Below are positions 5,776 to 58,960 of a DNA stretch of 64,000 nt, piece after piece. The position numbers and the translations under genes were made by a program. A model generated the notes under the pieces. The model did not search any database and was not told the origin of the DNA. It was given only the letters and a program-made list of their open reading frames with translations. The stretch covers positions 532 through 64,531 of the forward strand of contig CAYFUG010000004.1 of assembly GCA_964346295.1 (NCBI GenBank). Reading direction: 5' to 3'. This DNA is from an uncultured Bdellovibrionales bacterium. GTDB taxonomy: Bacteria > Patescibacteriota > Minisyncoccia > Moranbacterales > DUUL01. The stretch's first letter is position 1. Every line of letters starts with the position of its first letter.

Positions 5776-6085
5776 GACATTTTCTCCTTTTTTTGGTTTA
5801 TTTTTCTATTTTAACCTCTTTGAATTTCAAAAACAAATCAATAGATCAAAATCAAAGAGGGAAAATTAGAAGAGCGTCGAACAAGTCGACTAGTTTGTTT
5901 AGCAGGGAATTGGATTTTTGTAAATAGCGGGATTTATAGGGCGGCTTTGATAAGAAAAGAGGGCCGCATAGTTGCCTAATTATTAGCTTCCCAGAAGCTT
6001 TAAAGCACATCGGTTTAGGCCGGTGTTTTTTGTTGGAAAAAATAAGATAGAACATTTTCGCCCCAGTAATTTTTTAGCTAAGATC

Positions 6086-6140
6086 CTTCGACTTTTTTCT
6101 TCGCTAGAGCTACGACGGACAAGCCGCTTGGGATGACAGT
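6086..6140. repeat. dispersed repeat family, A-type module (partial copy)
   Basis: ttcttcgctagagctacgacggacaagccgcttgggatgacag is homologous to copies at 34318, 42262, 46940, 25135, 19745 and 44770. Confidence 0.5.
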
Positions 6141-6257
6141 TGAAAAATTTTTAGATTTAGAGCGAAATTTATTGAATTACAATTCCATAAATTTGAATTA
6201 ATTTATAGATTATGCTTCTATATATTATAATTAATTTATGGAGTTAATTTTAACAAA

Positions 6258-24118: not shown

Positions 24119-24260
24119 AACGGAGCCTTACTCATTTTGAAAATTTCGTTGTTGAAATCCGGGCTTCCCTTTCACCGTACACTTCAGTACGGCTCAAGCA
24201 AAGCCTACCTGCCTGTCGGCAGGCAGGGATTTCGCCTAGAACTCTCCTAAAATGAGAAAG
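24119..24260 (+). repeat. dispersed repeat family, B-type module
   Basis: ttgaaaatttcgttgttgaa...caccgtacacttcagtacggctc (CCGTAC/GTACGG hairpin) then ...gcctagaactctcctaaaat. Confidence 0.55.
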
Positions 24261-24377: not shown

Positions 24378-24995
24378 TTGAAGCAAGGCTTTTTAGTTAT
24401 TGCTCATAATATCCGCAGTTGCTACAATGTTGGCTCGATTTTTCGTAGTGCGGATGCTTTGGGCGTGGAAAAGATTTATTTAACCGGCTACACTCCCAGA
24501 CCGGGTGTTTTGGTTACTTCCGATGCTGAAAGTGGTCTTGATAAATTAAGCTTTAAGGTAAATTCTCATTCCGATTCAAATTTAAGTCTCGGAGAAAGAA
24601 GAGGCCCCAAAACGAGCTTTACTGAGGCGCTAAAAGCTAAAAAAGATGCCAAAAAGATTGCTAAAACGGCTTTAGGAGCAGAAGAAGTAGTTGCTTGGGA
24701 ATACCAGAGGCAATTAGGACCACTGATTCAAAAATTGCAGTCGCAAGGGGTGCAAGTGGTAGCTCTGGAGCAAGCTTCTAATAGTCTAAAATTAACTGAT
24801 TTTAAGCCCAATTTTCCTTTGGCGCTGCTAGTGGGTAACGAAGTGCGAGGAATCTCTCCTCAAATACTGAAAAAAGTGGACAAAATCGTAGAAATCCCGA
24901 TGCAAGGAAAGAAGGAGTCCTTGAATGTTGGGGTGGCATTTGGAATCGCCGGTTTTTGGCTCCAAGCTGTTGATTTTGGTAAATTTCGTTGTTGA
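24378..24995 (+). CDS. SpoU/TrmH-family RNA 2'-O-methyltransferase
   Basis: LVIAHNIRSCYNVGSIFRSADALGV motif. The C-terminus FGKFRC-stop is supplied by the dispersed repeat. Confidence 0.7.
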   Translation: MKQGFLVIAHNIRSCYNVGSIFRSADALGVEKIYLTGYTPRPGVLVTSDAESGLDKLSFKVNSHSDSNLSLGERRGPKTSFTEALKAKKDAKKIAKTALGAEEVVAWEYQRQLGPLIQKLQSQGVQVVALEQASNSLKLTDFKPNFPLALLVGNEVRGISPQILKKVDKIVEIPMQGKKESLNVGVAFGIAGFWLQAVDFGKFRC

Positions 24996-25185
24996 AGTCT
25001 CCACTTCTCGCTCACCGTAGCTTTATTACGGCTTGCTTCGATGCTCGACTTCGCCTAGAACCTTACTCAAAATCAATAGCTTGGCCTAGACTGTGGCTGC
25101 TTCAGATTAAACTCAAAATATTGTCTAAAATTTCCTCCCGCTTTTGCCAGTGCTACAGATGGGACAGATAAAACTTGAAAAACTT
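24996..25185 (+). repeat. dispersed repeat, near full-length copy (B+A modules)
   Basis: ctcaccgtagctttattacggc...gcctagaacc... then ...gccagtgctacagatgggacagataaaacttgaaa. Confidence 0.55.
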
Positions 25186-25342: not shown

Positions 25343-28009
25343 GTGGAGAGACTTGTTGTCGATAGAAGTGAAGAGAAGAGAAACGGACCGGAAAGAAATC
25401 CGGGGTTTTTTCAGTTAGCTGCTTATCCAAAAGAAGATTGGGATTTGTTAAGGGCTGTGAATAAGGTGTTGTCGAAAGATAGTAGTCGAGTTTATGGTTT
25501 GCAGAGGGCTTTATTGGATTATCCCGAACTAGGGAACGAAGAGACAAAGGAGGTAATTTTAGAAAAGATGGAAGAAGAACTTTTAAGCATTTATTCTGAT
25601 GATTTAAGACTGGAAAATGGAATAAACTCGATAAAAGATGCTTTTGAGGGAATAAGGGGGATTTATTTAGGGAAAATAGAGACAGAGAAGGTTGTGATCG
25701 AGCGAGTCAACCAGCTTTACCCAGCGGAGTTGGAAGCCTTTGAGGATTTATTGGGCGACTTTATAGTTTATAAAAAAGTTTTACCTAAAGATGTTATTCA
25801 GGCAATTTACAGAAATAGGCTAGAGAAAATTGGAAATGTAAATCTTAATAATCTTTTTAGTTATGGAGATGTAGGCTTAGAAAAAGAGTGTTTAGGGGTT
25901 AATGAAAGAATTTTTGAAGCTCTAGAGGAGCTAGCCTTGTTTTCTGATATTTCCGAAGGTCAGAAAGCGGAACTTTTTCAGTCAGTGGCAAGGGGGTTAT
26001 TTGGAAGGGAAAAAAAGTTTTTTGTAGACCCAGAAAAGGCTTTGAGATTTGTAAGAGTCACTTTTCAAAGTCCAGAGACCAAGCGCTATGCCAAGCCACT
26101 TTTCATGAATTATTGGTGGGAGTGGGAGAATGCTATTGAAAAAATGCAGTCAGAAATTGATTTTGAAGATCAGAGCAAGGAGAATATTAGGAAAATAGCA
26201 GAGTTGGCGGAAATTTACGGGGCAGTTTACGGAGAATTGATAAAGAGGGGAATCGAACCTAATAATGATGGGGCAGTTTACATGTTGAATTTTATTAACC
26301 AGGCGGGAGGAGTAGACGATTTTTACCTTAACTTAAAGGTTAAGCAAGCCGTTTTTCTTATTCAGGCTGATGCTTGCCTTTATTATGAGGAAGGCGAGGA
26401 TTGGCAAAAGGAAGGAAGGGCGCAGTTGATTTATAGTGCGGCTCAAACTTTGGGAACTGATCTGCAGCTTAGTGGCGAGGAGCTGCAGCAATTTTTAACT
26501 GATATAAAAGGTTTTTTTGGGCAAAAATTAACTGCCGAAATTGAACCTCTTGTTAAGGGGCAGGTGGCAGCTCCGGGAGTAGAAGGGCATTTTGATGATG
26601 ATTTTGATCTGGTGCTACTGGAGGAGGAGAGAGGCAATGAAGGTGATAGGCTGAAGTTTAGCGAATTTATTAAGTTGAATTACTACGATGTTATTGAAGA
26701 GGGCGATTTTCTGGATTTGATGTTTATGCAAAATTTATTCATCAAGAAGCGAATTTCCCAGGAGTTAGGCGTGGCTTTGCATAACTTAGAGTTGAGAGCT
26801 CAGAATCAGTTTTTAAACTTCATTAAAAATGCCTCCCAGGAGAGAGTGAGACAAGTGGCAGAATTCGTAAAAAATCCAGCAGAAGAAGAGCAGCGCTTAA
26901 ACCGCCTGAGAGTCTTTCTTTCCTTGGAAGAGGGCCATTTTTCAGGAGATCAGCTATTGGACTTGCCTTCCAGGATTGATGCTGACCAAGCGCAGCAAGT
27001 TTTTGACCAGTATGGGAGACTGGTTCAAGACGCTTTTTCGGAGCAGTCGACCCTTCAAGAAGTGCTAAAGAATCCGGAGGATTTGGCCAAAATTGATCAA
27101 GAAAAAATCACTCAAAATTTGCTCTTCCGAGGCCAAAAAATCCTTCAAAGGCTAATTGAGTCTAGCGAGCCAGAGAGAGAGGCAGAAAGTGTTTTATCCA
27201 GCCTTTTAGCACAAAAATGGCAAATTCAACTAGCGGGAGCAGTTTTTAGGGAAGGGATCGAGGCTGGGATGAGTTTAGATGATTTAGAGGGTGGCAGAAT
27301 TGAGGTTTTAACCGTCCAAGACTTAATTCAAAAACCAGAATTGGTGGCTAAAATGAGGGATATTTATTCTAATAATTTCTCCAAAAAACCTGATTTGCAA
27401 GGAGCGGTTTTGCAAGGATTTGATCAAAAAATGACAGAAGGAGGCGTTAATTCGGAGTTTGCTTTGGCCTTTGTGGGCGAAGAATTGGTGGCTTTTAGCC
27501 GCAGTGATCATGTAGACGAAAAAACTCGCTATTTTGCTTCTCTAAACTCTTCTTATGGCGGTGCCAAGTTTGGAGAAGCTCTGAGGAGGAAAAGAGAGGC
27601 TCAGGTGGGAGAAAATTTTGATATTCGGGCTCATAGTGAGCCAGAAAGTGCCATGAGTACGCTGTATATTGGCCCAGAGGGAGGATTTATAGCCGATGGG
27701 GTAGAATTTAATTATCACAACACCGAGGCTAATTTATTCAGTATTACTAGACAAAAAACCCCGCCCAGTTACTATGCTTGGAGTAAGCCTCGAGAAGAGC
27801 TAGTCAAAGAGGCGAAAGAACTTGCGGATAGTGAGATAAGTAGCATTTCTCTAGAAAAGGGTAAGCCTCTGGTTTTAAGCCTCCAGGGGCTAGAAAATAC
27901 ACTAGTGGCACTAAAAACCCTACTCAATGAGCAGGGCGGCCAGTTGACCAATTATTGGTTTCAGGGCGGAAGATATTTTTTAGCTATAGAAAACCCTAAA
28001 TCAAGCTAA
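25343..28009 (+). CDS. large hypothetical protein (888 aa; start uncertain)
   Basis: Long uninterrupted ORF with no recognisable motifs. Starts with GTG at 25343; the alternative ATG near 25567 follows an AAGGAGG. Confidence 0.5.
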   Translation: MERLVVDRSEEKRNGPERNPGFFQLAAYPKEDWDLLRAVNKVLSKDSSRVYGLQRALLDYPELGNEETKEVILEKMEEELLSIYSDDLRLENGINSIKDAFEGIRGIYLGKIETEKVVIERVNQLYPAELEAFEDLLGDFIVYKKVLPKDVIQAIYRNRLEKIGNVNLNNLFSYGDVGLEKECLGVNERIFEALEELALFSDISEGQKAELFQSVARGLFGREKKFFVDPEKALRFVRVTFQSPETKRYAKPLFMNYWWEWENAIEKMQSEIDFEDQSKENIRKIAELAEIYGAVYGELIKRGIEPNNDGAVYMLNFINQAGGVDDFYLNLKVKQAVFLIQADACLYYEEGEDWQKEGRAQLIYSAAQTLGTDLQLSGEELQQFLTDIKGFFGQKLTAEIEPLVKGQVAAPGVEGHFDDDFDLVLLEEERGNEGDRLKFSEFIKLNYYDVIEEGDFLDLMFMQNLFIKKRISQELGVALHNLELRAQNQFLNFIKNASQERVRQVAEFVKNPAEEEQRLNRLRVFLSLEEGHFSGDQLLDLPSRIDADQAQQVFDQYGRLVQDAFSEQSTLQEVLKNPEDLAKIDQEKITQNLLFRGQKILQRLIESSEPEREAESVLSSLLAQKWQIQLAGAVFREGIEAGMSLDDLEGGRIEVLTVQDLIQKPELVAKMRDIYSNNFSKKPDLQGAVLQGFDQKMTEGGVNSEFALAFVGEELVAFSRSDHVDEKTRYFASLNSSYGGAKFGEALRRKREAQVGENFDIRAHSEPESAMSTLYIGPEGGFIADGVEFNYHNTEANLFSITRQKTPPSYYAWSKPREELVKEAKELADSEISSISLEKGKPLVLSLQGLENTLVALKTLLNEQGGQLTNYWFQGGRYFLAIENPKSS

Positions 28010-28762
28010 TTTTCGGGAATAATCCCAGTGAAATTCGAACAGGGATTTGTGCATTTGGTAAATATTGGGATCTTGGATTAGCATAGCGATTTTGTGTTCT
28101 TCTGAAAGGGAGATGTAAATGACTTTTCCTTCGTAAATTTGCATTACAGAACCCGAGAAGGGGTATTTTTCTTGATCAATAAGCTTAATTTCTGTAATAT
28201 CTCGCAGATAATTTTGCAAGTAATTTTTGGCAAAGGCAGAGTCCAGGACCAGAACCTTTTTGTTAAGGTTAAGCTTGGATCTTTTTTTCATGTAGCACTG
28301 ATTGATTTTTTCGGTGTATTTGATAACAGCCTCCAGGTCGGCATAAGTGTAAATAATTTCTTGACTGGTGAGAGTGTCTTCCAGGGCCTCTTGAATGCCT
28401 TCTAGTCCCTCAAAATAGCGGACGTCAGGTTTCTGAGAAACTAAATTAAATTCTGATGTCAGTGCATCTAGATTGGCCGCTAGGTTTTTATGAGTTTTTT
28501 CTAGTTGGGAAGATTGATCGCGGAGTAATTCTTCTAATTGATTAGGGTGTTGAGGATAAAAATGAGTCAATTTTCCCTTTTTTTTGCTAATTACCAGGCT
28601 TTTTTCTTCTAAAGATTCTAAAACATTGTAAACCACCCCCTTTTGGAGGGTGGTTTTTTTAATGATTTCGCTGGCAGGAACTGCTCCAGAGCGAAGCAGG
28701 AATTCGTAAATAGTGGCTTCATTAGGGGTCAGTCCAACTTGAGTAAGGATGTCTTGGTACAT
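28001..28762 (-). CDS. TrmB-family HTH transcriptional regulator, divergent from GC island 2
   Basis: N-terminus ILTQVGLTPNEATIYEFLLRSGAVPASEI is typical of the TrmB HTH. Paralogous to 39074..39868 and 58052..58837. Confidence 0.7.
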   Translation of the reverse strand: MYQDILTQVGLTPNEATIYEFLLRSGAVPASEIIKKTTLQKGVVYNVLESLEEKSLVISKKKGKLTHFYPQHPNQLEELLRDQSSQLEKTHKNLAANLDALTSEFNLVSQKPDVRYFEGLEGIQEALEDTLTSQEIIYTYADLEAVIKYTEKINQCYMKKRSKLNLNKKVLVLDSAFAKNYLQNYLRDITEIKLIDQEKYPFSGSVMQIYEGKVIYISLSEEHKIAMLIQDPNIYQMHKSLFEFHWDYSRKLA

Positions 28763-28877: not shown

Positions 28878-28906
28878 TTGACAATTTTTTAATAATATGC
28901 TACAAT
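28878..28906 (+). promoter_or_regulatory. sigma70-type promoter of GC island 2
   Basis: TTGACA, 17 nt, TGcTACAAT. Embedded in the TTGACAA...TTGTCAA palindrome. AT-rich UP-like region upstream. Followed by GTCAAGCTAAGAAAAGG. Confidence 0.65.
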
Positions 28907-29108
28907 GCCTTGTCAAGCTAAGAAAAGGGTAAAACTCCGAAGCTTGAAGAACTGAAAGGTTCTAGCCAAATAAGAATAGTTGGCTCTTAGTACATTATAT
29001 CGAGAATAACCACACAACACAAACCACAGGAAAGTTTCTTGCAAGGCTTTTCTAGAGGTGTTTTTTGTGTTGTGGAAACATTCTCTAGCAAGAGCCCTGC
29101 AAAAAACT

Positions 29109-32518: not shown

Positions 32519-32704
32519 CCCTTACCTTAGAATTTTTTTGATTTCTAGGCCCTCTCCATCAGGCCTCCTGCGAAGTTAGCAGGTTTTAAAAATTTGGATG
32601 GTAGTCCGAGCGGCGGAAATGACTCAAAACTATCCGCAAAATTAGCCCTGACAATCAGGGCCGGCCGAGGCAAGCGCAATGCCGCTTTAGCCTAAGAGGC
32701 CACC

Positions 32705-32836
32705 AAAAGGCCCGAAAGAGTCTGGCCAACGCGCTAAATCTTTCGGAGGGACGAACTTGTTGAACACAACATTTTCGTCCCCTCTACTAGCAACTTAATT
32801 TGAGACTTGATCTTTTATTGAGTTGCTTGAGAGAAT
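32705..32836 (+). repeat. 132-bp direct repeat, copy 1
   Basis: Near-identical (2-3 mismatches) to 34004..34136. Contains a GGGACGAA-cttgttgaacacaacatt-TTCGTCCC hairpin. Confidence 0.85.
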
Positions 32837-32924
32837 CTATTTTGAAAGGCGAGTTCTTTGAAATATATCCAAAGCTTCATTGTAATCTTTGGGTACTTCA
32901 ACCAAACCAGAAAAGGGGGATGCC

Positions 32925-33971
32925 ATGGGTAAATTTCAGGAAATCACACTGGAATTATTGTTGGAAAATGAAGTTTTGAGGAAGTATCTTCTCAAGGCAA
33001 GAATTGGTCCAGCTAAAAAAGGCGACGGTGCTTTTGTGGGGACTTATGATATTGCCCCGAAGGAGTTTCGGAGTTTTGGAATTGTTTTGCCCAGGGGCGG
33101 GATGATTATTCCAGGGGCAGATCCTGTCAAGTTAAAGGAAATGGTCAAGGAGCCTGAGCGCCGGCGTGAGGCGGAGGACTTGGCAAATCGTCGTGCTGTT
33201 GAAAAAGATTATCTCAATCAGGTGAAAGAGATAATTGCTGAAGCTGGCCTCACGGATATTGAAGTGGTGGAAGAAGACGGAGTGGACTTCCATAGTATCG
33301 GCGCCACCAGCTGGCACAAGAGCTTTTTGGTAAGAGAAGGAGAGAAAATCTTCAGTCTTCACAGCGAAGAGGAGCCGTATCGTGGCTTAGATGACGATGG
33401 TTCGTACGAGCCGTGGAGGACGGAGTTTACTCCGTTGGAAGAGGTGAAATCCTTCCTTGAAGAGGAGGCGCGTCTTGTTGGTCCGAGAAAAATGTTTGCT
33501 GATCGGATCAGGCGGCTTATTGATATAAGCCACAATGTTGGTCAGCAAGGGCCAGATGAAACTGGCTGGGATCGCCCTCGAGTGGAATTATTTTTGTACG
33601 ATGACTATAAAAAAGGCAGGGACTGGGGTTTTTTCGGTCATCGTTGTCAGGGTATCTCTTCGGCCCACAGGATTTACTATCGAAAAAAACTCTATGAGAT
33701 TACCGAAGAAGGCATTTCTCGCCTTGAGTATGAAATCGGAGAAAGGGAGGAGGCGCTAGAAGCAAGACGAGCGATGCTCAAAAGACTCTTCGAAGAGAAG
33801 GGCAGAGTTTTTGAGGAACTCAAAGAAGAGAAAGATTGCTATGCCGGAAAGTCACTGGCAACCGGCAAGGCAAAGTACGATGAGTGGACTGAAACGCGCT
33901 ACTTTCTCGGCGACACAGAAGTTACCGAGGAAGAGCGTGATTGGCTGAAGGGCTTACCTAAGGATAATTAG
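32925..33971 (+). CDS. hypothetical protein (348 aa) bracketed by the 132-bp direct repeats
   Basis: RBS AAAAGGGGGA then ATG at 32925. Charged soluble protein with no recognisable motifs. Confidence 0.55.
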   Translation: MGKFQEITLELLLENEVLRKYLLKARIGPAKKGDGAFVGTYDIAPKEFRSFGIVLPRGGMIIPGADPVKLKEMVKEPERRREAEDLANRRAVEKDYLNQVKEIIAEAGLTDIEVVEEDGVDFHSIGATSWHKSFLVREGEKIFSLHSEEEPYRGLDDDGSYEPWRTEFTPLEEVKSFLEEEARLVGPRKMFADRIRRLIDISHNVGQQGPDETGWDRPRVELFLYDDYKKGRDWGFFGHRCQGISSAHRIYYRKKLYEITEEGISRLEYEIGEREEALEARRAMLKRLFEEKGRVFEELKEEKDCYAGKSLATGKAKYDEWTETRYFLGDTEVTEEERDWLKGLPKDN

Positions 33972-34003
33972 TGGATAAGGCCCTCAAGACTCTTCAAATT
34001 TTC

Positions 34004-34136
34004 AAAAGGCCCGAAAGAGCCTGGCCAACGCGCCAAATCTTTCGGAGGGACGAACTTGTTGAACACAACATTTTCGTCCCCTCTACTAGCAACTTAATTT
34101 GAGACTTGATCTTTTATTGAGTTGCTTGAGAGAATT
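34004..34136 (+). repeat. 132-bp direct repeat, copy 2
   Basis: See copy 1. Confidence 0.85.
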
Positions 34137-34205: not shown

Positions 34206-34317
34206 TCTACTGCTTTTAGCTATTCAATTCCCCTAATCCCTCCTCCTTTGCTAAAGCTATGGTCGGCAGGCTTTTGTAAGGGGGTTGCTGAGCAGGGAAA
34301 GGCTAAGATCTCTTGAC

Positions 34318-34372
34318 TTCCTCCTTCGTCAAAACTTCGGAGGACAAGACGCTCGGGATGACAAAGAAAAAA
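34318..34372. repeat. dispersed repeat, A-type module copy
   Basis: tccttcgtcaaaacttcggaggacaagacgctcgggatgacaaag. Confidence 0.5.
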
Positions 34373-38586: not shown

Positions 38587-39073
38587 AATGGTTTAAAAAA
38601 GGATTTAAGTTACTTGACAATCAATTGAGAAAAAGATAACTTCTAACTTAATTGCTTTTTATTGAGTCCGCTAAGGCAGCGTAACATTTTTTAGGGAATA
38701 AATCTACCCCCTGAGTAAGGAGGACTGGACTTTCTTGGAAAATGTTGTTAATATTGTAGACATAATTTGTCAGACTTCCTTAGGAGGGTAAATTAATTCC
38801 TGTTTAATTTCTTTAATATGCCTTAAATAAGGGTAAATTTAAAAAAGAAATTTTAATTAGGAAATTGATTAAGAGTTTTAATTTTATGTTAATGATCTTA
38901 ATTTAATTTCTCAAAATTTAATTTCTCATCTCAAAAGGGATTAGTTTATTTTTCTGGAAAATCTGAAATTTAATCTACGACTTGAACTCTGCTTGCTGGC
39001 TAGACTTGCAAAATTTAGAGAAGCAGTTTATAATAAAGTTAGAAATGCAGGAGGGTCAAGTTTTAAAAGAGTT

Positions 39074-39868
39074 ATGATGTTAGATGAAGAATTGATTAAA
39101 CTGGGCCTTTCCGAGAAAGAGGCAAAAGTTTACTTGGGGGCAATTCAATTAGGAGCCTCCACTGTCCAAAAAATTTCTCAGAAGTCTCAAGTTAACCGGG
39201 CGACTACTTATGTGATTATCGAGAGTTTAATGCGAATGGGCTTGATGTCTACTTTCGAGGAAGGTAGAAAAACTTTCTATGTTGCAGAGAAGCCTCGTCG
39301 TTTGGTAGAGTTCTATAAAAATAAGAAGACTCGCCTGGATGAGAAGATTGAAAGGTTAAGCGAGATCGTGCCGGAGTTGAATTCTCTTTATAACGATCAT
39401 TCCGACCGACCCAGAGTGAAGTATTATGAGGGCAGTGAGGGTTTATTAGCGATTTATGATGATTTCGAAAGTACTTTATCAGGGGGGCAAGAGATATTAA
39501 TATTTACTCCCATTGATGATTTCAAGAAAATCAAGAAGCCTCAGATGAGTCAAAGGATTGAGAAGTTTAGAGACAAGAGATTGAAAAAAGGAGTGAGAGC
39601 CAGGACTATATATAGCTCTGCGAGCGGAAGGGACGAAATATTTGAAGAAAGTATTAGAAAATTAGGTGAAGAGATCCTATTTTTAGAAAAAGATAAGAGT
39701 GGTCTCAATGGTTTAGACGCGGGTTTAAATGTTTATGGTAATAAGGTTTTCCTTTTTAGTTACCAAGGCAAGAGAGGCGGAGTTTTGATAGAGAGTCAAA
39801 GCGTGGCCAATCTTTTAGGAGGTATATTTGAAATAGTTTGGTCTCATTTGAAATCTTTAAAAAAGTGA
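39074..39868 (+). CDS. TrmB-family HTH transcriptional regulator
   Basis: LIKLGLSEKEAKVYLGAIQLGASTVQKISQ HTH. Start set at MMLDEE (39074). Confidence 0.65.
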   Translation: MMLDEELIKLGLSEKEAKVYLGAIQLGASTVQKISQKSQVNRATTYVIIESLMRMGLMSTFEEGRKTFYVAEKPRRLVEFYKNKKTRLDEKIERLSEIVPELNSLYNDHSDRPRVKYYEGSEGLLAIYDDFESTLSGGQEILIFTPIDDFKKIKKPQMSQRIEKFRDKRLKKGVRARTIYSSASGRDEIFEESIRKLGEEILFLEKDKSGLNGLDAGLNVYGNKVFLFSYQGKRGGVLIESQSVANLLGGIFEIVWSHLKSLKK

Positions 39869-40024: not shown

Positions 40025-40882
40025 TTGATTTTTATGCATAATCAAGCGAGAGCAATGCAGGATTTTGAAATGCTAAGAGCACTTCAAGTAATTCAGCTCG
40101 ACTTAGGACCAAATCACTTGGTTGATTTGGGTTTTGTTCGAATTGTAATTTGCCCTTATGCGGATAATGAATTTTGGAACTTTGCAGTTTTTCAGGACGA
40201 AATCACATCATCTCAACTGAGGGAATTGGAGCAAAAATTTCAACAATTAGAAGAAGAGGCAGATAAGGACTTTGCTATTTGTGCTTCGGATAATCAGACT
40301 CAGGTTCTAAGACTAGTGAAGAAGACTGGCTACAAGAATATTCTGCACCGGTCGTTTTTTGTTAAAGACCTGGATGGATTTCAGGAAAGGACGCTTGATA
40401 GCCCTTTCGATAGTTTCAGTGAGAAGCTCCGTTTTGAAAAAGTTCAATCTGATCAGGGCTGGGAGGATTTTGTAAAAGTCTTTGATGAAGCTTTTAGGGA
40501 GGAAAATTCTGCCTCTCTTCATCCGGGGCCGATATATCTGGAGGTAATGGAAGAGGTCTGGCGTAAAGATCAGTCCAAGGGAGGCAAGATTGTTAATCAT
40601 CTCGTTTTGTACCAAGAGGGTGAGCCAGTGGCGGTAGCTTCTAATTTTAATTCTTTGCAGCATCGGATGAGTTATATCTCTAATGTAGGAGTGCATCCTA
40701 GGTTCAGAAAAAAGGGATTGGGAGGTCGGATAGTCAATTTTTGTCTGGCCGATTCTCAAGAATTTGGCAATGAGCAGGCAACCTTAGTAACAGAAAACAA
40801 CGCCGGCTTGAGAAGTTTCTATCGAGGATTGGGATTCCAGAATTTATTTGACTTTAGCTATTATGCCAAAAAATCCAATTAA
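40025..40882 (+). CDS. GNAT-family N-acetyltransferase
   Basis: C-terminal VGVHPRFRKKGLGGRIVNFCL acetyl-CoA binding motif. Confidence 0.65.
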   Translation: MIFMHNQARAMQDFEMLRALQVIQLDLGPNHLVDLGFVRIVICPYADNEFWNFAVFQDEITSSQLRELEQKFQQLEEEADKDFAICASDNQTQVLRLVKKTGYKNILHRSFFVKDLDGFQERTLDSPFDSFSEKLRFEKVQSDQGWEDFVKVFDEAFREENSASLHPGPIYLEVMEEVWRKDQSKGGKIVNHLVLYQEGEPVAVASNFNSLQHRMSYISNVGVHPRFRKKGLGGRIVNFCLADSQEFGNEQATLVTENNAGLRSFYRGLGFQNLFDFSYYAKKSN

Positions 40883-42125
40883 AAAGCCTAAGATATTGGT
40901 GGCGCTGAGCGGAGGGGTAGACTCGGCGGTGGCGGCCCTGCTTCTTCTGGAGCAGGGTTTTGAGGTGCAAGGGATTCATTTTTTGCTGAGTAGCGAGAAA
41001 TTGATTAGCGCAGAAAAAGTTCGGTTGATTGCTAATGAATTGGGGGTCGAGCTAGAAGTAAGAGATATTTCTCGGGAGTTTCAAAAAGAGGTGGTGGATA
41101 GTTTTGCTAAAACTTATCAAAAAGGAGCGACGCCTAACCCTTGCGTGATTTGCAACCGGAAGGTAAAATTTAAGCAGTTACTCCAGGCTCGCGAGGAGCT
41201 AGGCTGTGATCTAGTAGCCACCGGACATTACGCACGGATTGCTGCTGGTGAGGGCTCCCTGAAGGCGATCTCCACTCAATCCTCTCAATCTCTCCATCTT
41301 CGCCAGGACTACAGTCGACAGGCTCTACAAAAGGGGGAGACTGAGGGTTTTTTTCTTCAAAAGGCCAAGGATCAGCGCAAGGATCAGTCCTATTTTCTCT
41401 ATCGATTAACCCAGGAGCAGTTGCAATTTTGTCGCTTTCCCTTGGGGGAGCACTTCAAAGATTGGGTCAAGCAGCGGGCTAAAGATTTAAATTTAGGCCT
41501 AGAAAGGCAAGGAGAGTCCCAAGACATTTGTTTTTTTGAGCCAGAGGAAAGCCTGCGAGATTTTCTTGGAAGGCGCTCTAAACAAAACTTTACAGAAGCT
41601 TCAATAATTTCGGACAAAGGTGAGCCTTTGGGGAAATGCGAGGGTTTGGAGTTGTTCACGATTGGCCAGCGCAAGGGCCTAAATCTCAGTGGGGGGCCTT
41701 GGTATGTTTTGAATAGAGATTTCACCAAGCGGCAGCTGGTAGTCACTCGCGATTCGGAAAGCCCGGATTTTTGGCAAAAGGGAATTTTTATCGAGCAAGT
41801 CAACTGGATTAATCAATCTCCTCAGCCGGGAAAATGGTACGACTTGCAAATTCGTTATCAAGGAAAAGTTTATCAAGGGATGCTTGAGAAATTAAAAGAG
41901 GGGCTTCGAGGGCAGGGCGGGGGATATTCCGTCCCCACTCCTACGGGGGTTGCTCAATCCCCCCAGCCCCTCCTCCTTCGCCAGGACTACAGTCGACAGG
42001 CTTTACGAAAGGGGGAGCCTAGCTGGAAGGTTAGCTTGAAGGAGGCGGCCCGGGCGGTAGCAGCGGGGCAATCGTTGGTGGTGTATGAGGGTAGTCAAGT
42101 TTTAGGGGGAGGAATCATCTTCTAG
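40848..42125 (+). CDS. mnmA: tRNA-specific 2-thiouridylase MnmA with two in-frame repeat-derived insertions
   Basis: PP-loop LVALSGGVDSAVAA, NPCVICN, GHYARIA...KDQSYFLYRL, C-terminal SLVVYEGSQVLGGGIIF. About 60 extra residues arrive in two blocks that share the peptide LRQDYSRQAL. Confidence 0.85.
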   Translation: MTLAIMPKNPIKKPKILVALSGGVDSAVAALLLLEQGFEVQGIHFLLSSEKLISAEKVRLIANELGVELEVRDISREFQKEVVDSFAKTYQKGATPNPCVICNRKVKFKQLLQAREELGCDLVATGHYARIAAGEGSLKAISTQSSQSLHLRQDYSRQALQKGETEGFFLQKAKDQRKDQSYFLYRLTQEQLQFCRFPLGEHFKDWVKQRAKDLNLGLERQGESQDICFFEPEESLRDFLGRRSKQNFTEASIISDKGEPLGKCEGLELFTIGQRKGLNLSGGPWYVLNRDFTKRQLVVTRDSESPDFWQKGIFIEQVNWINQSPQPGKWYDLQIRYQGKVYQGMLEKLKEGLRGQGGGYSVPTPTGVAQSPQPLLLRQDYSRQALRKGEPSWKVSLKEAARAVAAGQSLVVYEGSQVLGGGIIF

Positions 42126-42261
42126 TTAGTAGTTTTTGATTTTTAGTTCTTAGTTAATTTCAGAAGGGAATAATTTTTTGGCGTTGCTAACTAAAAATAC
42201 ACAGCTATTGTCATTCCGACTGAAGCGAAGCGAAATGGAGGAATCTTAGCTGAAAAATAAT

Positions 42262-42330
42262 ATAAGATCCCTCGACTCCCTCCTTCGCCAAGGCTACGGC
42301 GGGCAAGGCGCTCGGGATGACAAACTAAGA
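42262..42330. repeat. dispersed repeat, A-type module copy
   Basis: ctccctccttcgccaaggctacggcgggcaaggcgctcgggatgacaaa. Confidence 0.55.
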
Positions 42331-43021: not shown

Positions 43022-44218
43022 TTGACTTCAAAGAAAAAAAAACAGACCAGTTTTTTAGGGGACAAGAAGGTGGCTTTAGTCCACGATTTTTTGTTATACT
43101 GGGGGGGAGCGGAGGCCACTTTGCAAGTGTTGGCCAAAATGTTTCCTCAGGCGCCGATTTACACCCTGCTTCAGGATGAGCAGTTTACCAAAAAGCACTT
43201 CAGGGGGCGAGAAATCCGGACCTCGTTTTTACAGAAAATTCCCCGCTGGATCCGCAAAAAACACACTCGCTTATTGCCGCTAATGCCAACCGCCATTGAG
43301 TCGCTCAATTTGCGGGATTATGACTTGGTAATTTCCTCCTCTTCGGCTTTTGCCAAGGGAATTGTGGTGAAGCCTAAGACCACCCATGTTTGCTACATGC
43401 ACGCCCCTATGCGTTATGTCTGGGACTACTATCACCAGTATTTTCAAGAGCGCTTTGGCAATCGAGCTAAAATTTTTACCCGGACTTTTCTCAACTACTT
43501 GCGAACTTGGGATCGAGCCAGTGCCGACCGGGCTGATCATCTGGTTGCCAATTCTCGTTACACTGCTCGGCGAATCGAAAAATATTATCGTAGAGAATCC
43601 ATGGTGATTTATCCCCCAGTGGAGGTGGAAAAATTCGCCCTCAGTCCGGACAAGGCAAATTCCAGTATTTCTTCTAGCTCTGATTTGATAGAGAAGCAAA
43701 ATCAGGCCAGGAGAGGTAGCTATTTTTTGACAACGGGGCGCTTAGCGACTTATAAGCGGGTAGATCTTTTGATTGAGGCTTTTCAGAAGCTCAAGTTGCC
43801 GCTAGTGATAGTGGGTGATGGCCCGGAGCGTAAAAAGCTAGAGAAATTAGCCCAAGGGAACAGCAAGATAAAAATTTTAGGCTGGCAAAGTGAGGAAAAA
43901 TTAATTCGACTTTATCAAAATTCCCGGGCCTTTGTTTGTGCCACCGAAGATGATTTCAATATCACTTGCGTGGAGGCAATGGCAGCCGGAACGCCGGTAA
44001 TTGCCTTAAAAAAGGGCGGCGTGCAGGAAACAGTAATCGAAGGTCAGACGGGAATATTTTTCCAGGAGGCACGGTTGGAGCTAGTGGTGGATGGAGTGCG
44101 GCGGTTTATTGAAAAAGAGGCTGATTTTGACTCGGAGGTGATTCAGGCTCGAGCGAGGGAGTTTTCGAGGGAGAGATTTGAGAAGGAGATGCGAAAGTAC
44201 TTGACTTCCATTTTTTGA
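43022..44218 (+). CDS. glycosyltransferase family 4 (RfaG-like)
   Basis: EAMAAGTPVIALKKGGVQETVIEGQTGIFF GT4 signature. Confidence 0.8.
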   Translation: MTSKKKKQTSFLGDKKVALVHDFLLYWGGAEATLQVLAKMFPQAPIYTLLQDEQFTKKHFRGREIRTSFLQKIPRWIRKKHTRLLPLMPTAIESLNLRDYDLVISSSSAFAKGIVVKPKTTHVCYMHAPMRYVWDYYHQYFQERFGNRAKIFTRTFLNYLRTWDRASADRADHLVANSRYTARRIEKYYRRESMVIYPPVEVEKFALSPDKANSSISSSSDLIEKQNQARRGSYFLTTGRLATYKRVDLLIEAFQKLKLPLVIVGDGPERKKLEKLAQGNSKIKILGWQSEEKLIRLYQNSRAFVCATEDDFNITCVEAMAAGTPVIALKKGGVQETVIEGQTGIFFQEARLELVVDGVRRFIEKEADFDSEVIQARAREFSRERFEKEMRKYLTSIF

Positions 44219-44325
44219 AAATTTTGGTGTCAAAATCTCCGCTACTCCCTCACCGTAACTCTCAGTACGCCTCGCTCGCTGCTCGATTTCTCCTAAAAAT
44301 TTCCTAAAAAATGAAAGTCCTTAAA
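44219..44325 (+). repeat. dispersed repeat, B-type module
   Basis: ttttgaaaattttggtgtcaaaatctcc...ctcaccgtaactctcagtacgcctcgctcg...tcctaaaaatttcctaaaaaatg. Confidence 0.55.
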
Positions 44326-44768: not shown

Positions 44769-44924
44769 TTTTCAAACCCGCTTTCATCTTAGGGCTTCAG
44801 CGAGGCGCAGCAATTTTTAATATTTTAATGATTGAATTTTAAATAAGCAGAGCAGGAAAAACAAAAACAGCCCTTTTAGGGCTGCTTGAAAGCTTATTTT
44901 TATTCTAAATATAGCAAAGCAATA

Positions 44925-44998
44925 GAAGGGGGAACACTCGTTAAAATGTCTTCTTCTGCTATAATGTCGGTAGACATTTTAACGAGTGTTCCCCCTTC
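44925..44998. repeat. perfect palindrome: 27-bp arms, 20-nt loop containing TATAAT
   Basis: gaagggggaacactcgttaaaatgtct (44925..44951) and its exact reverse complement (44972..44998). Loop tcttctgctataatgtcggt. Confidence 0.9.
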
Positions 44999-45191
44999 TG
45001 TCAATACCCCTGAAAACAAAATTGTAATTGATAGCAGCAGTGAAATTTGTATTAAAAGTAACAACTTTGAAAGTTTCAGCATAAGTGATTTATTAGAAAA
45101 TATTAAGATTCTGATTAAGCATATTTTAGCATATTCAAGGGAAAAATCAAGGGTAAAAATCGATTCTAAGCGAGTAATTTGTCAAGCAAAG

Positions 45192-47102: not shown

Positions 47103-48377
47103 ATGATTAATTCTAGAAAAATGATTTCAAGAGAAATTTATCCTAAGCTTTATAGTTGGGCGAAAAAGGGCAAGATTATTATTTTGAAGGGACCTCGTCA
47201 GGCGGGGAAAACGACCCTGATGAATTTTTTATTAGACAATCTTAAAAAAGAAGGTCAAAATACCGCTTATTTGTTGGCAGATGACATTGATAAGCAAGAG
47301 TTGTTTAAGTCTCCAGCCGCTCTGGAATTTTACTTGAGTCAGAAGTATAATTTTCCCGAAAAACATCTTTTTCTTTTTATTGATGAGTTTCAATACATTG
47401 ATCAGGCGGGACTCTTCATTAAAAACTTTTTTGATAAGCATCAGGGCCAGGTAAATTTAATTTTAAGTGGGTCTAGTTCCCTGGAAATCACTCAAAATCA
47501 AGAGTTTTTGACCGGTCGGGCGGTGGAGTTTGAAATGGGAACTGTTAATTTTCGAGAGTTTTTTAATTTTCGAGAAGGAACTCGGATTAAAAAATTTCCC
47601 CTTGAAAGCCAGGATGATTTAAGTAATTTTTATAAATCCTTTGAGAGTAAGCTAAGCCTCGCCTTAAAGAATTTTTTAGTTTTTGGGGGGTATCCTGAGG
47701 TGGTGGAAACCTCATTAGAGGAAGATAAGAAAGTAATTTTAAAGTCGATTGTTAAGAAATATTTAGAAAAGGATGTGGCGGGTTTTTTGCAAATCGAAAA
47801 TATCACTGCCTTTAACAACTTAACGAAGATTTTGGCTTCTCAAATTGGTAATTTAGTTAATATTAGCGAACTGGCTAATACGGTAAACTTATCCATTAAC
47901 ACCGTTAAAAGATATCTGGATGTTTTGCAAGGGACATATGTCTTTAGTCTGGTGCGACCATATGCTAAGAACATTCGCAAGGAGCTAAGCAAAATGCCTA
48001 AAGTTTATATTCAAGACTTGGGGGCAAAAAATTATCTTTTAGGTGATTACAAAGACAATTTATTTGGTGGCAAGGAAGTGGAAAATTTTGTTTTTTTAGG
48101 GATGGCTAATAATTTAAGTTCAGAAGGAGTTAACTTCTATCGAACCAAGGGAGGCTCAGAGGTCGATTTTATTTTAGAAAAAGAGGGTGGCTTGAATTTG
48201 ATAGAAGTTAAATATCGGTCGGTTTCCAAGATCAAAGAGCCTCTGGCATTCGCCAATTTTTCGGAAAATTATGGAGACAGAGTTCAAAACAAGATTGTGA
48301 TTTCCAAAGATGTTTTAAAAAAAGATGGGAATATTTACTTTATTCCGGCGGTGCTTTGGCCCTGGATAGAGTTATAG
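47103..48377 (+). CDS. AAA+ ATPase with C-terminal DUF4143-like domain
   Basis: Walker A GPRQAGKT, Walker B FIDEFQ. Confidence 0.7.
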   Translation: MINSRKMISREIYPKLYSWAKKGKIIILKGPRQAGKTTLMNFLLDNLKKEGQNTAYLLADDIDKQELFKSPAALEFYLSQKYNFPEKHLFLFIDEFQYIDQAGLFIKNFFDKHQGQVNLILSGSSSLEITQNQEFLTGRAVEFEMGTVNFREFFNFREGTRIKKFPLESQDDLSNFYKSFESKLSLALKNFLVFGGYPEVVETSLEEDKKVILKSIVKKYLEKDVAGFLQIENITAFNNLTKILASQIGNLVNISELANTVNLSINTVKRYLDVLQGTYVFSLVRPYAKNIRKELSKMPKVYIQDLGAKNYLLGDYKDNLFGGKEVENFVFLGMANNLSSEGVNFYRTKGGSEVDFILEKEGGLNLIEVKYRSVSKIKEPLAFANFSENYGDRVQNKIVISKDVLKKDGNIYFIPAVLWPWIEL

Positions 48378-48419: not shown

Positions 48420-49652
48420 ATGAAACAAACTAAAATTATTACCGAAAAGTGGGAGCAGGTGAGTCCAAGATTTATCTCTAGCTACCAAAAGACAGGAGGT
48501 TATCAGGATTTGGCTAAAGCCTTAAAAATGGGTCCGGATCAGGTACTTCAAGAGGTGTTAGCGTCTGGTCTGGCCGGTCGGGGCGGGGGCGGATTTCCTA
48601 CCGGAAAAAAGTGGCAAACGGCTTTAGAACAAAAAGCTTCGGAAAACTACTTTATCTGCAATTTGGATGAATCGGAGCCAGGGACTTACAAAGATCGCTA
48701 TTTAGCGGAAAGTAGTCCTCACCAGCTTTTAGAGGGCATTATGATTGCTTCTTTTGCCCTCAAGGTGAAGAAGGCTTACATTTACCTCAATGGAAATTTT
48801 CACGCCGCTCGGCAGTTGCTGCAAAACGCCCTTCAACAAGCCCAGGAAGCCGGATTTTTAGGAGAGAATATCTTGGAGAGCGGTTTTGATTTAGAAATCG
48901 AACTATTCGTGGGGGCGGGGGCCTATATTTGCGGAGAGGAATCAGCTTTGATTAATTCTATTGAGGGTAAAAGAGGGGAGCCACGGCGCCGGCCTCCTTT
49001 TGCTTGTGTTTGCGGACTGCATAATCGCCCTACGGTTGTGAACAACGCCGAAACTATTGCCAACTTGCCTTGGATAATCCAGAATGGCGGCAAGGCTTAT
49101 TCCCGGGTTGGCCTGCCAGATCAGCCGGGTACTAAACTTTTTTCCATCGGGGGAATGGTGCGTAACCCTGGTTTGTACGAGTTTCCTTTGGGCGTCAGTG
49201 TGCGAGAATTGGTTTACAAAGCGGGAATGGGCATGCGGCCAGGATTGGATTTTTGGTTTGCTCAAGTGGGGGGATCAGCCGGTCGCCTGGTAACGCGCAA
49301 TTTATTGGATGAAATTCCTAGTTATTCTCGCAAGGCTCGGATTTCGGTAGGATCGGGGGCGGTGCTGGTGGTAGATAAAAACCAGGACATCAAGGAACTT
49401 TTACTAGCTTGGAGCCGGTTTTTTGCTCGGGAGTCTTGCGGGCAGTGTGTTCCGTGTCGAGAGGGGACTTTCCGTTTGCAGCAGCTTGTAGAGCGCTTGG
49501 GGGGAGAAAATTTCAGTCAAGATGATTGGGAGGACATGCAGCGCATTATTTTCACTCTGGAGCGGAGTACTTTTTGCGCTTTAGGGAAGTTTGCAGCGGT
49601 GGCGATTAAGGATGCGCTGGAGCTGAAGTTGGTGGAGGCTTCCAAATTTTGA
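48420..49652 (+). CDS. NuoF-like NADH-binding FMN/Fe-S flavoprotein (complex I 51-kDa / HoxF-like)
   Basis: GLAGRGGGGFPTGKKW FMN motif. ESCGQCVPCREGT 4Fe-4S motif. The C-terminus EASKF-stop is supplied by the repeat. Confidence 0.8.
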   Translation: MKQTKIITEKWEQVSPRFISSYQKTGGYQDLAKALKMGPDQVLQEVLASGLAGRGGGGFPTGKKWQTALEQKASENYFICNLDESEPGTYKDRYLAESSPHQLLEGIMIASFALKVKKAYIYLNGNFHAARQLLQNALQQAQEAGFLGENILESGFDLEIELFVGAGAYICGEESALINSIEGKRGEPRRRPPFACVCGLHNRPTVVNNAETIANLPWIIQNGGKAYSRVGLPDQPGTKLFSIGGMVRNPGLYEFPLGVSVRELVYKAGMGMRPGLDFWFAQVGGSAGRLVTRNLLDEIPSYSRKARISVGSGAVLVVDKNQDIKELLLAWSRFFARESCGQCVPCREGTFRLQQLVERLGGENFSQDDWEDMQRIIFTLERSTFCALGKFAAVAIKDALELKLVEASKF

Positions 49653-49745
49653 AAATTTTGGTGTTGCAAGCTGCGTTTGGCACTCACCGTACCCTTCAGT
49701 ACGGCTCGCACCAAGCCTCGCTTGCGCCTAAAAATTTCCTAAAAT
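49653..49745 (+). repeat. dispersed repeat, B-type module
   Basis: ttgaaaattttggtgttgcaagctgcgtttggcactcaccgtacccttcagtacggctcgcaccaagcctcgcttgcgcctaaaaatttcctaaaa. Confidence 0.6.
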
Positions 49746-49815
49746 TTGGAAGCCTTAATCCAGCGGTTATTTTTAGTGGGAGATTTTTACAAGTTAACTT
49801 TTAAAATTTATTAAA

Positions 49816-55868: not shown

Positions 55869-55967
55869 GGAGTTTTAAATTTTGAAAGGATTCGAGTGAA
55901 TTATCAAGATACTTTTTGGAAAAATTGTTTAATTTGATTTTTTTAAACTAAAATACTACAATTCCTA

Positions 55968-56358
55968 GTCGCTTGGTCTAGCTTTGTCTAGATCAAGAGG
56001 AAAGTCTGGACACCAGCCGGCTTTCAATTGGAAGCCAGTTAAAAGGGTAATCGGTAACGCCGATCGGGCTCGATGTGAGTCGAGTCAAGGGATAGCGCCG
56101 CAGAGACAATACTAGTTAATGCTCTGCATTAACGAAAGGTGAAAAGTGTCGAGGGGCTCATTTCTTCGGAATTTGAGCTACTCGACTCGGCTATTGGCGA
56201 CAATAGTTTGTGGCAAGCCCTACCCGGTGCAAGGCCGTGTCTTCTCGTAAAAGAGAGGAAGTGCCGCTAAAGTTCAGCAGTGATGTTGAATGTAGATAAA
56301 TGACTAGGCCAATTTACTTTGGTAGATTGGTACAGAATCCGGCTTATTTTATCTAGTT
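55968..56358 (+). ncRNA. rnpB: RNase P RNA (bacterial type A-like)
   Basis: P4 strands AGAGGAAAGTCTGGAC ... ACAGAATCCGGCTTAT. Also conserved GGTAACGCC, AAAGGTGAAAAG and GGCAAGCCC...GCAAGGCC elements. The ends are approximate. Confidence 0.65.
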
Positions 56359-56658
56359 TTCAGTTAGTAGTTTTCAGTTTTTAGGCCGCATGGAGGCAGC
56401 GCAGGTTATAGAAGCGAGTCCTTTGTAAAAATCTCGAGCGTTGTTTACAGCTTTCTTTATTAGTAGAACACCTCTATTTTTCTTCATGAGGCATTTTGTC
56501 TCCTATATAAGGCAATAAACGCCGTCATTAAAACTGGAGCGGTTTGAAATTGAAATTTAAAAATGTAAACAACGCTAAGGAATCTTACAAGTTATTTCTT
56601 ATCTTGAATTTTCTGGTGTAGTATATGCTGAGCTAAGATAGAAAATAAAATCAAAAGA

Positions 56659-58051: not shown

Positions 58052-58837
58052 TTAAGCTGGCAAAGTTTTCCAAAGTTGCTCAAATTGGGTGCGTTGGAGA
58101 GCGTAGATTTGAGGATCTTCGATAATGATGGAAATTAACCCGGAGGACCCGATTGCCTGGTAGGAGATTTTATTGTGATAAATTTGAATGGAAGCGCTGA
58201 AGTTAAGGGCGCTTTTTTTAATGAAACGCACTTGAGTGATGGCCTGGTAATTAGCGGGAGCAGTTCGATATTCTTCGATTATTCCGGGTTCATCAAGATC
58301 GATAATCCTTTTTTGGAGCCCCAAACGGGCTCTTTTTTGAGTGTAGCGAGCGTTGATCTTCTCATTGTTTTTGGCTAATTTCGGATCAGTGGTTCTAAAA
58401 ATAGCAGCAGAATCGATTAAAGTGAGAATTTCCGTGTCGCTGCGCAAAGTGTCCTCCAGCACTTTCTCTAGACCTTCGGAGCCCTCTAAAAAGCGAATTC
58501 CTGGTCGATTGAGGCCCAAATTGTATAAAGAAGCTAAGTTAGGCGCCATCTCTAAGAAGGCGCTTTTTTGTTGCTTAAATTCTTGCTCTTTTTGATCGAG
58601 GATTTTTTGGATTTGAGCCGGGTGTTGAGCGGAAAAACGGGCTACTTTGCCTTTTTTATCAAGCCTAAAGACTAGTTCCAGGTTCTCTAGCTCAGCCAGA
58701 ATTTTATAGGCGGCTTCTCTGGGGCGGTTGGTTTTTTGGGCAATTTCTCGGGCTCGGGTCGGTCCGTTTTGGTAGAGGAATTCCAAGATTTGGGCTTGGG
58801 AGGGGGTGAGGCCGATGCTTTGGAGAAGTTCCAGCAT
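58052..58837 (-). CDS. TrmB-family HTH transcriptional regulator, divergent from GC island 3
   Basis: LLQSIGLTPSQAQILEFLYQNGPTRAREIAQ HTH. Confidence 0.7.
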   Translation of the reverse strand: MLELLQSIGLTPSQAQILEFLYQNGPTRAREIAQKTNRPREAAYKILAELENLELVFRLDKKGKVARFSAQHPAQIQKILDQKEQEFKQQKSAFLEMAPNLASLYNLGLNRPGIRFLEGSEGLEKVLEDTLRSDTEILTLIDSAAIFRTTDPKLAKNNEKINARYTQKRARLGLQKRIIDLDEPGIIEEYRTAPANYQAITQVRFIKKSALNFSASIQIYHNKISYQAIGSSGLISIIIEDPQIYALQRTQFEQLWKTLPA

Positions 58838-58859
58838 ATTGAGAAGAACTTCCAGATTT

Positions 58860-58960
58860 GGCGAATCTCGATGTTACTCGCTGCGTTTAGTACTCACCAT
58901 ACTTCTTAGTACGCCTCCCACTAAGCCTCACTTGCACCTAGAGCTTCACTCAAATCTGAA
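58860..58960 (+). repeat. dispersed repeat, B-type module
   Basis: gctgcgtttagtactcaccatacttcttagtacgcctcccactaagcctcacttgcacctagagc. Confidence 0.55.

Follow-up and report, generated by a model that had tools for sequence, protein, structure and literature searches.

Two in-frame insertions carrying a dispersed repeat module in the mnmA gene of a Moranbacteria-like member of the Patescibacteria

We analyzed a 64-kb stretch of the metagenome-derived contig CAYFUG010000004.1 (hereafter the window, meaning the whole 64,000-nucleotide stretch) and found that its mnmA gene, which encodes the tRNA 2-thiouridine(34) synthase, contains two in-frame insertions of 102 and 114 nt, each with a copy of a dispersed repeat unit that we call the A module. 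We put at roughly 80% the probability that two A-module copies were inserted at the DNA level into mnmA of this uncultivated Moranbacteria-like member of the Patescibacteria, where they are carried as tolerated passengers of selfish DNA. The mnmA finding is real; the phenomenon is a known one, and the repeat family and the host lineage are new to it. The gene and its insertions are located as follows.

40863..42125, plus strand: mnmA coding sequence (tRNA 2-thiouridine(34) synthase), 420 aa from ATG; assigned from the NF001138 score, motifs and Foldseek.
41241..41342, plus strand: insertion 1, 102 nt, 34 aa, residues 127–160, AAGEGSLKAISTQSSQSLHLRQDYSRQALQKGET; at the tip of a β-hairpin after GHYARI.
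41901..42014, plus strand: insertion 2, 114 nt, 38 aa, residues 347–384, GLRGQGGGYSVPTPTGVAQSPQPLLLRQDYSRQALRKG; in a loop of the C-terminal β-barrel domain.

The mnmA open reading frame (ORF) spans 40848–42125 and encodes 425 aa when counted from a TTG at 40848, which is the length given in a first-pass annotation made from the sequence alone; gene calls in public records give 409 and 420 aa. The protein scores 320 bits against the curated equivalog model NCBIfam NF001138, above the cut-off of 284. Ortholog alignments show that the PP-loop SGGVDS and the motifs NPCVxCN and SQDxCF are kept and that S16-G17-G18-D20-S21, C94, C97 and C223 are invariant. An AlphaFold2 model built on 120 homologs (mean predicted local distance difference test score, pLDDT, 87; predicted template modeling score 0.85) superimposes in Foldseek on the crystal structures 2HMA, 2DET and 2DEU with TM scores of 0.87–0.89 and a root-mean-square deviation of 2.3–2.7 Å. 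By its equivalog score, its PP-loop and catalytic cysteines, and its three-domain fold, the window protein is an MnmA. The best named matches of the window GyrA are from Moranbacteria or Patescibacteria, at 65–72%.

The insertions are defined by comparison with the closest ortholog. A search of 5.8 billion proteins returned the identical protein, one close relative (P0002), and otherwise nothing above about 45% identity. P0002 has 353 aa and is 71% identical to the window MnmA over the 348 residues they have in common; its contig (L001) is syntenic with the window, with an acetyltransferase gene, mnmA and a 166-aa gene, and the DNA is 72–74% identical. Protein and DNA alignments place two clean gaps in P0002 and L001 at both insertion sites, and the residue balance closes, with 420 − 34 − 38 = 348 aligned residues and five residues of its own near the N-terminus of P0002. 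Both segments proposed in the first-pass annotation are therefore missing from the nearest syntenic relative at the protein and DNA levels. The length of ~38 aa proposed there for the second segment stands, and the ~29 aa proposed for the first becomes 34 aa in the ortholog alignment, with borders uncertain by a few bases.

Both insertions have lengths divisible by three, contain no stop codon in the frame used, and read the element in the same frame. They have in common the peptide LRQDYSRQAL, which had been read in both segments at the outset and lies within residues 127–160 and 347–384. The 28-mer first quoted for this peptide is found exactly at 41975–42002 and with one mismatch at 41297–41324, and it had no match in 100 shuffles. 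Elsewhere in the window, related copies fall into two types, A and B modules, which share a ~30-nt core, CTCCTTCGCCAnnnCTACnGnnGnCAnG, and differ in their flanks.

41275..41342, plus strand: A module copy 1, in insertion 1; repeat family D6; likeness to the intergenic copy extends perhaps to ~41346.
41953..42020, plus strand: A module copy 2, in insertion 2; preceded by the 10 nt GGGGGTTGCT.
34223..34290, plus strand: A module, intergenic, 3′ of gyrA and of a terminator-like hairpin; alignment z = 10–17.
34304..34365, plus strand: B module, intergenic, directly 3′ of the A copy; repeat family D4.
6079..6147, plus strand: B module, intergenic; detected by the repeat finder, the joint hidden Markov model (HMM) and the hairpin HMM.
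42208..42325, plus strand: composite element, intergenic, just 3′ of mnmA; 12-nt terminal inverted repeats TTGTCATTCCGA ... TCGGGATGACAA.

Searched with the joint HMM derived from the copies, the 64 kb yield six members, every one on the plus strand: three A modules (two in mnmA and one intergenic at 34223) and three B modules (6079, 34304 and 42263). By this model, mnmA is the only gene in the window with insertions, and the window GyrA and RNase P RNA are free of the repeat. Between the two mnmA copies, identity is 85% over 68 nt (repeat finder and blastn), and the 15% divergence falls in the pyrimidine-rich 5′ arm. Local-alignment z-scores were computed against 300 shuffles, none of which reached any reported score. 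Insertion 1 aligns to insertion 2 with z = 25, and the insertions align to the intergenic copy at 34223 with z = 10–17; this copy is non-coding and has a stop codon in the frame used by mnmA. The first-pass link between the mnmA segments and an intergenic A module is thus borne out by a true third A copy at 34223–34290. The third copy named there, at 42262, proved to be a B module that has only the ~30-nt core in common, a cousin rather than a sibling, because its alignment to insertion 2 reaches z = 6.3 versus 10–17 for the 34223 copy. A similar score (z = 6.5) links insertion 2 to the hairpin consensus from metagenomes described below. The 3′ half of the composite element is this B module, with a well-preserved hairpin core at 42276–42309 (hairpin HMM E = 7e-12) that is the best window copy of the hairpin module. 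The composite folds more stably than shuffles (z = −2.66) and is missing from the ortholog locus L001. The 10-nt GGGGGTTGCT in the 5′ part of insertion 2 is identical to the 3′ end of the intergenic A copy, a hint that this insertion may hold part of a second module.

These comparisons leave little room for the idea that the segments are native, lineage-specific loops that evolved in place and resemble the repeat by chance or composition, which we find scarcely credible. The first loop does vary in length across many MnmA orthologs, and the 5′ parts of both segments match nothing, as native loops might. Yet 27 of the 28 quoted bases are the same at two unrelated positions of the gene, with none in shuffles, and the similarity (z = 25) extends at z = 10–17 to a non-coding intergenic copy, so the nucleotide likeness to the repeat that native loops should lack is present. 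The closest ortholog, which has neither segment, already contradicts such an origin.

The same gene was recovered repeatedly. NCBI, JGI, ENA and Logan all contain the identical 420-aa protein (P0121), and both insertions are present in all of the contigs compared (JGI 3300012002, a 65-kb contig from which the window evidently derives; ENA ERZ922771 and ERZ922774; Logan ERR1878606 and ERR2437277). These five assemblies represent at least three sequencing runs plus one JGI sample, processed with different pipelines. Four match the window at 100% identity, and ERZ922771 shows 2 mismatches over 17 kb (99.99%). Because the identical gene was assembled five times, the insertions are not a misassembly. 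Repeats can confuse assemblers, and the source is a metagenome, but the identical stretch shared by the two insertions is 27 nt, far below the k=127 named in the ENA contig names. Decay of the gene is no better a fit, given an intact ORF, a ratio of nonsynonymous to synonymous substitution (dN/dS) of ~0.1, and conserved catalytic motifs and fold; an assembly artefact or a degraded pseudogene is, in our judgment, very improbable. Two of the assemblies end at 42242 and 42245, inside the repeat 3′ of mnmA, as expected for a multi-copy element.

Analysis of the protein model suggests that the insertions are compatible with the MnmA fold. Insertion 1 is modeled as two low-confidence helices (pLDDT 53–60) between strands 124–128 and 163–167, and insertion 2 as an unstructured segment (pLDDT 45–48) between strands 336–343 and 388–397; the flanks of both exceed pLDDT 90. 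The structure check suggested at the outset thus places both insertions, in the model, at the tips of two β-hairpins, the first in the catalytic domain and the second in the C-terminal barrel, and a sequence alignment puts the first at the hairpin tip that follows ATGHYVR of E. coli MnmA. Comparison with the L001 ortholog gives a dN/dS of ~0.10 over 348 shared codons, with dS saturated. As judged from sequence and model, the enzyme core is intact, is under purifying selection and keeps the MnmA fold.

Based on these data, we propose that the A module arose by decay from a hairpin module of ~30 nt set in lineage-specific flanks. A non-autonomous repeat of this kind would insert into mnmA as DNA, and selection would then keep only in-frame, stop-free insertions in surface loops. 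The insertions would be translated as floppy extra loops of 34 and 38 aa that leave the enzyme core undisturbed, since both are multiples of three, stop-free, and located at β-hairpin tips. Such a survivorship filter also predicts one shared frame, because the two other forward frames of insertion 1 hold stop codons. The insertions are best seen, by analogy, as passengers and not as functional domains: the insert-bearing MnmA is probably active, the extra loops probably have no function, and transposition-like mobility, rather than recombination, presumably brought the insertions to the gene.

An alternative is that the segments are recruited functional loops, or that they are removed after transcription or translation in the manner of introns or inteins. 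The common frame and 10-aa peptide, together with the two helices modeled for insertion 1, could be taken in this sense. However, both segments are modeled with low confidence, and the survivorship filter would by itself lead one to expect a shared frame. In addition, other proteins read the core in different frames and orientations, which points to conservation at the nucleotide level. Rfam gave no intron or ribozyme match, nor a family for any repeat copy, and 34–38 aa is far too short for an intein. We regard functional or removable segments as quite improbable.

Several observations weigh against insertion of a mobile repeat followed by passive tolerance. The repeat module covers only about two-thirds of each insertion (the 3′ ~68 nt), and the 5′ 34 nt of insertion 1 and 52 nt of insertion 2 have no other copy in the window, apart from the 10-nt match described above. 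Predicted folding energies of the mnmA A copies equal those of shuffles (z = −0.29 and −0.02; for the core, z = −0.37 and +1.33), and the search for target-site duplications or terminal inverted repeats at these copies gave nothing convincing. Gene tables of the 64-kb window list no transposase or RAYT-like domain (RAYT, transposase associated with repetitive extragenic palindromes), and a profile search of 1.84 billion representative proteins with the A-module peptide returned only an unrelated β-propeller, although clustering at 50% identity can hide insert-bearing alleles. Finally, the two mnmA copies are closer to each other than to any other copy. On the structural side, a weak CTCAATCCCC / GGGGGTTGCTGAG symmetry in the copy at 34223 is the only sign of terminal inverted repeats among the A copies. 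TGAGGG occurs on both sides of insertion 1 (41249–41254 and 41342–41347), its 3′ copy overlapping sequence common to the intergenic copy. The window repeat elements are too short to encode a protein.

Because the two mnmA copies resemble each other most, the second could derive from the first. In this scenario, the dispersed repeat would have hit one site, and the other copy would have arisen by ectopic recombination, template switching or gene conversion within mnmA. The 85% likeness between the mnmA copies, compared with about 62–75% to the only other A copy in the window, speaks for it, as does the rarity of the A core. Specifically, the exact core has no match among the GTDB representative genomes, a degenerate version has one among them (intergenic, in the Peribacteria metagenome-assembled genome (MAG) L003), this lineage being poorly sampled there, and the degenerate core has none in the JGI metagenome collection. 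In contrast, the flanks of the shared 68 nt are wholly different (34 versus 52 nt of unrelated 5′ sequence), the differences (15%) sit in the 5′ arm, which is rich in pyrimidines, closer master copies may exist beyond the 64 kb, and the breaks of other assemblies in the adjoining repeat suggest many copies. We therefore consider a single insertion followed by copying within the gene unlikely, and favor two separate insertions.

The two sites differ in how often they vary among orthologs. In 120 MnmA orthologs from Patescibacteria, the loop at the first site, after GHYAR, is 12–76 aa long (mode, 16), and the loop at the second site has 22–23 aa in most and reaches 62 aa only in the window MnmA. 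Orthologs that are 75–85% identical to each other carry wholly different first-site inserts. One of these (L004, 4867–5052) is an element of 186 nt bounded by the terminal inverted repeats GTCATTCCGAC ... GCTCGGGATGAC, and it has an intergenic twin 1.3 kb upstream (L004, 3439–3598) that is 91–95% identical. The insert in L132 (9654–9773) has termini of the same kind, and the pattern GTCATTCYGA ... TCRGGATGAC is common to the L004 insert, the L132 insert and the window composite at 42208–42325. No second copy was found within about 20 kb for the other long first-loop inserts (L006 and L007), and none was found for the L132 insert. At the second site, another ortholog (P0087 on L005, 5953–6018) contains the ~30-nt hairpin core in a frame other than that of the window, read as SFAKAPEGK. 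The first loop of MnmA is a permissive, recurrent landing site for different repeat elements in Patescibacteria.

The core common to the A and B modules belongs to a hairpin module that extends well beyond this lineage. Its consensus is (T/C)CCN-CC-TTCGCYAARGCTAC-GG-N'GG(A/G)-CAAG, for instance TCCGCC-TTCGCYAARGCTAC-GGCGGA-CAAG, and it consists of a 6-bp stem whose positions covary and a 14-nt loop that is almost invariant, spans about ten codons, and is open in five of six frames. The pattern CCTTCGCYAARGCTACGGNGGRCAAG occurs on at least 120 metagenome contigs (loci L008–L127) of 31–71% GC, in unrelated flanks and usually with one copy per contig. The four bases upstream of the pattern pair with its 3′ half. 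Among the matches listed, stem position −1 covaries with N (64 G:C, 15 T:A, 7 A:T and 2 C:G), position −4 covaries with R (73 T:A and 38 C:G), and the Y and R positions of the loop combine as 80 C:G and 37 T:A, with 2 mismatches. The predicted DNA fold reproduces the 6-bp stem, an internal loop and a small capped inner stem. That the hairpin might be a fragment of a universal structured RNA was also considered and found no support from Rfam.

Many of these hairpins lie within genes. Among the matches listed, 53 of the 89 that are clear of contig ends sit in an open frame of at least 150 codons; the other 36 include none with a clear signature of a frame-broken gene, and only L097 and L105 are flanked on both sides by long open frames. 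The spanning ORFs, again among the matches listed, read as UvrA, DnaE, DnaG, a Clp ATPase, leucyl aminopeptidase, a P-type ATPase, MiaA, a MiaB-MiaA fusion, RseP, ribosomal protein L1, HsdM and AddAB-like helicases. Solved structures confirm for two of the spanning proteins only, UvrA and leucyl aminopeptidase, that the hairpin falls in a variable loop. The hairpin is translated in several frames and both orientations (SFAKATADK, LRQGYGGQ, PSPRLRRTS, LSAVALAKA and LVRRSLGEGG), and conservation must therefore act at the level of the nucleic acid. The mnmA frame (LRQDYSRQ) corresponds to the LRQGYGGQ reading. The mnmA copies are decayed, and the 3′ half of their stem is like the GGTCGGCAGGC variant of the Peribacteria MAG L003. 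In the MiaB-MiaA fusion ORF (L031, 651 codons), the exact hairpin core is read as SSFAKATGDK, and a second, putative hairpin-like peptide, SPPSPKASAGK, lies where the two enzyme halves join.

When the B module at 42263 is set against the 3′ arm of the L004 element, which has no core, the core looks like an insert within a larger hairpin arm. Direct flanking repeats of at least 6 nt accompany 8 of 118 metagenome hairpins, compared with 1.7 expected, and are not consistent with the frame; taken together, direct and inverted flanking repeats are enriched about five-fold, in a minority of the 118 only, and what look like 8-nt duplications are out of keeping with the reading frame. In 7.3 Gb of plasmid sequence, the consensus matched only in part and no better than chance, and phages gave no match. 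A search of the open-access literature by sequence, peptide and topic returned no description of the hairpin or of in-frame repeats in Patescibacteria, although an earlier description may exist outside open-access text. The hairpin may represent an undescribed class of coding-compatible micro-element that occurs in bacteria whose base composition differs widely, regularly in frame in loops of housekeeping proteins, and that in Patescibacteria is nested in larger lineage-specific repeats carrying it into genes such as mnmA; we advance this only tentatively, as somewhat less probable than its converse.

The closest parallel is with the Rickettsia palindromic elements (RPEs). RPEs are small repeats of ~100–150 nt, located between genes and in frame inside conserved enzymes (Ogata et al. 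2000 Science 290:347, as reviewed in PMC2229807 and PMC10969869). They are described there as 105–146-bp palindromes that form a long stem-loop with ~12-bp terminal inverted repeats, classified in Rickettsia into families RPE-1 to RPE-10, with 19 or more insertion-bearing genes in R. conorii (PMC2229807, PMC10969869). Like RPEs, the window repeat is both intergenic and in frame in a conserved enzyme, with insertions of similar size (102 and 114 nt), a fixed frame, a recurring peptide (LRQDYSRQAL), an undisturbed fold, and a host from a small-genome, host-dependent lineage. Unlike RPEs, it belongs to an unrelated organism and sequence family, set apart by host and fold; no long stem-loop forms in the mnmA copies, what is conserved is a hairpin core of ~30 nt in variable flanks, and one insertion-bearing gene is found within 64 kb. 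The analogy with RPEs drawn in the first-pass annotation is apt because both insertions are multiples of three, stop-free, read in one element frame and located at loop tips. It holds for the kind of event, down to the recurring peptide, and not for family membership, since the host belongs to the Patescibacteria and no long palindrome is present.

Other small repeats were also compared. Intragenic MITEs (miniature transposable elements with inverted repeats) of bacteria include ERIC/IRU, YPAL, the 107-bp Correia element, QMITE1 of Coxiella and the Anabaena MITEs (PMC2229807, PMC10969869). The composite at 42208–42325 and the L004 and L132 inserts share with them MITE-like terminal inverted repeats, GTCATTCYGA ... 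TCRGGATGAC, whereas the A copies in mnmA showed no clear sign of terminal inverted repeats, of a target-site duplication or of a partner insertion sequence. Repetitive extragenic palindromes (REPs) are extragenic, species-specific, high-copy imperfect palindromes of 20–40 nt with a GTAG or CGTC tag at one end, and are mobilized by RAYTs (PMC3733652). The hairpin module resembles REPs and REPINs as a short, dispersed imperfect hairpin with conserved unpaired bases, here a 6-bp covarying stem and a 14-nt loop with CTAC (GTAG on the other strand). However, its tetranucleotide lies inside the loop, and it is spread over contigs of 31–71% GC, usually once per contig and often in genes. It is not a REP or REPIN because it is intragenic and has no end tag, and the window has no RAYT. 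PARCELs (short for palindromic amphipathic repeat coding elements) are likewise coding-compatible DNA repeats with dyad symmetry and a punctate, apparently horizontal spread over distant microbes; they differ in being tandemly arrayed units of 25 residues that occur in membrane proteins and in ORFs without known function, compared with the single insertions of ~10 or ~35 codons seen here in loops of housekeeping enzymes.

These results extend selfish DNA inside protein genes, best known from Rickettsia, to the Candidate Phyla Radiation, whose members have small genomes and depend on hosts, and in which weak selection may allow such elements in essential genes. As a reused landing pad, the MnmA loop offers a natural experiment on protein positions that tolerate insertions. 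In the annotation of MAGs, these repeats can give rise to contig breaks, to spurious small ORFs and to odd extra stretches within conserved proteins. If the hairpin is a genuine mobile or templated element that crosses phyla, it would constitute a new source of loop variation in bacterial proteins.

The window contains further repeats. A second dispersed family is located as follows.

24122–24260, 24975–25079, 44200–44324, 49634–49758 and 58849–58968: second dispersed intergenic repeat of ~120 nt, unrelated to the A and B modules.

Copies of this family have the layout TTTTGAAAATTT ... CACCGTAC..TCAGTACGGCTC ... CCTAAAA, and L001 has one at 2235–2335. A 60-nt block present in four copies (9046–9105, 9128–9187, 28878–28937 and 59120–59179) consists of what looks like a conserved promoter, TTGACA ... 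TATGCTACAAT, followed by GTCAAGCTAAGAAAAGG; two related blocks have GTTCTTTGAAAACTCAGAAATCAG 250 nt downstream (29131 and 59262). A 133-nt direct duplication (32704–32836 and 34003–34135), 98% identical and 1.3 kb apart, surrounds a 360-aa ORF at 32889–33971.

At 55953–56363 lies a class A RNase P RNA (144.6 bits) whose peripheral helices are enlarged and in which GGACACC of P4 is followed by an additional hairpin of 22 nt. These extras show no similarity to the repeats, unlike the RNase P RNA of Rickettsia, which carries RPE insertions. Several ORFs of 800–1000 aa have no Pfam match (12781–15192, 15293–18412 and 25343–28009). Three paralogous AAA_14/DUF4143 ATPase genes lie within the 64 kb (6258–7505, 7623–8957 and 47103–48377), together with several TrmB-family regulator genes at 28001–28762, 38993–39868 and 58052–58837. 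At 44924–44999, the start of a PMT_2 glycosyltransferase ORF coincides with a 76-nt stretch that matches its own reverse complement at 82%, forming a long imperfect palindrome.

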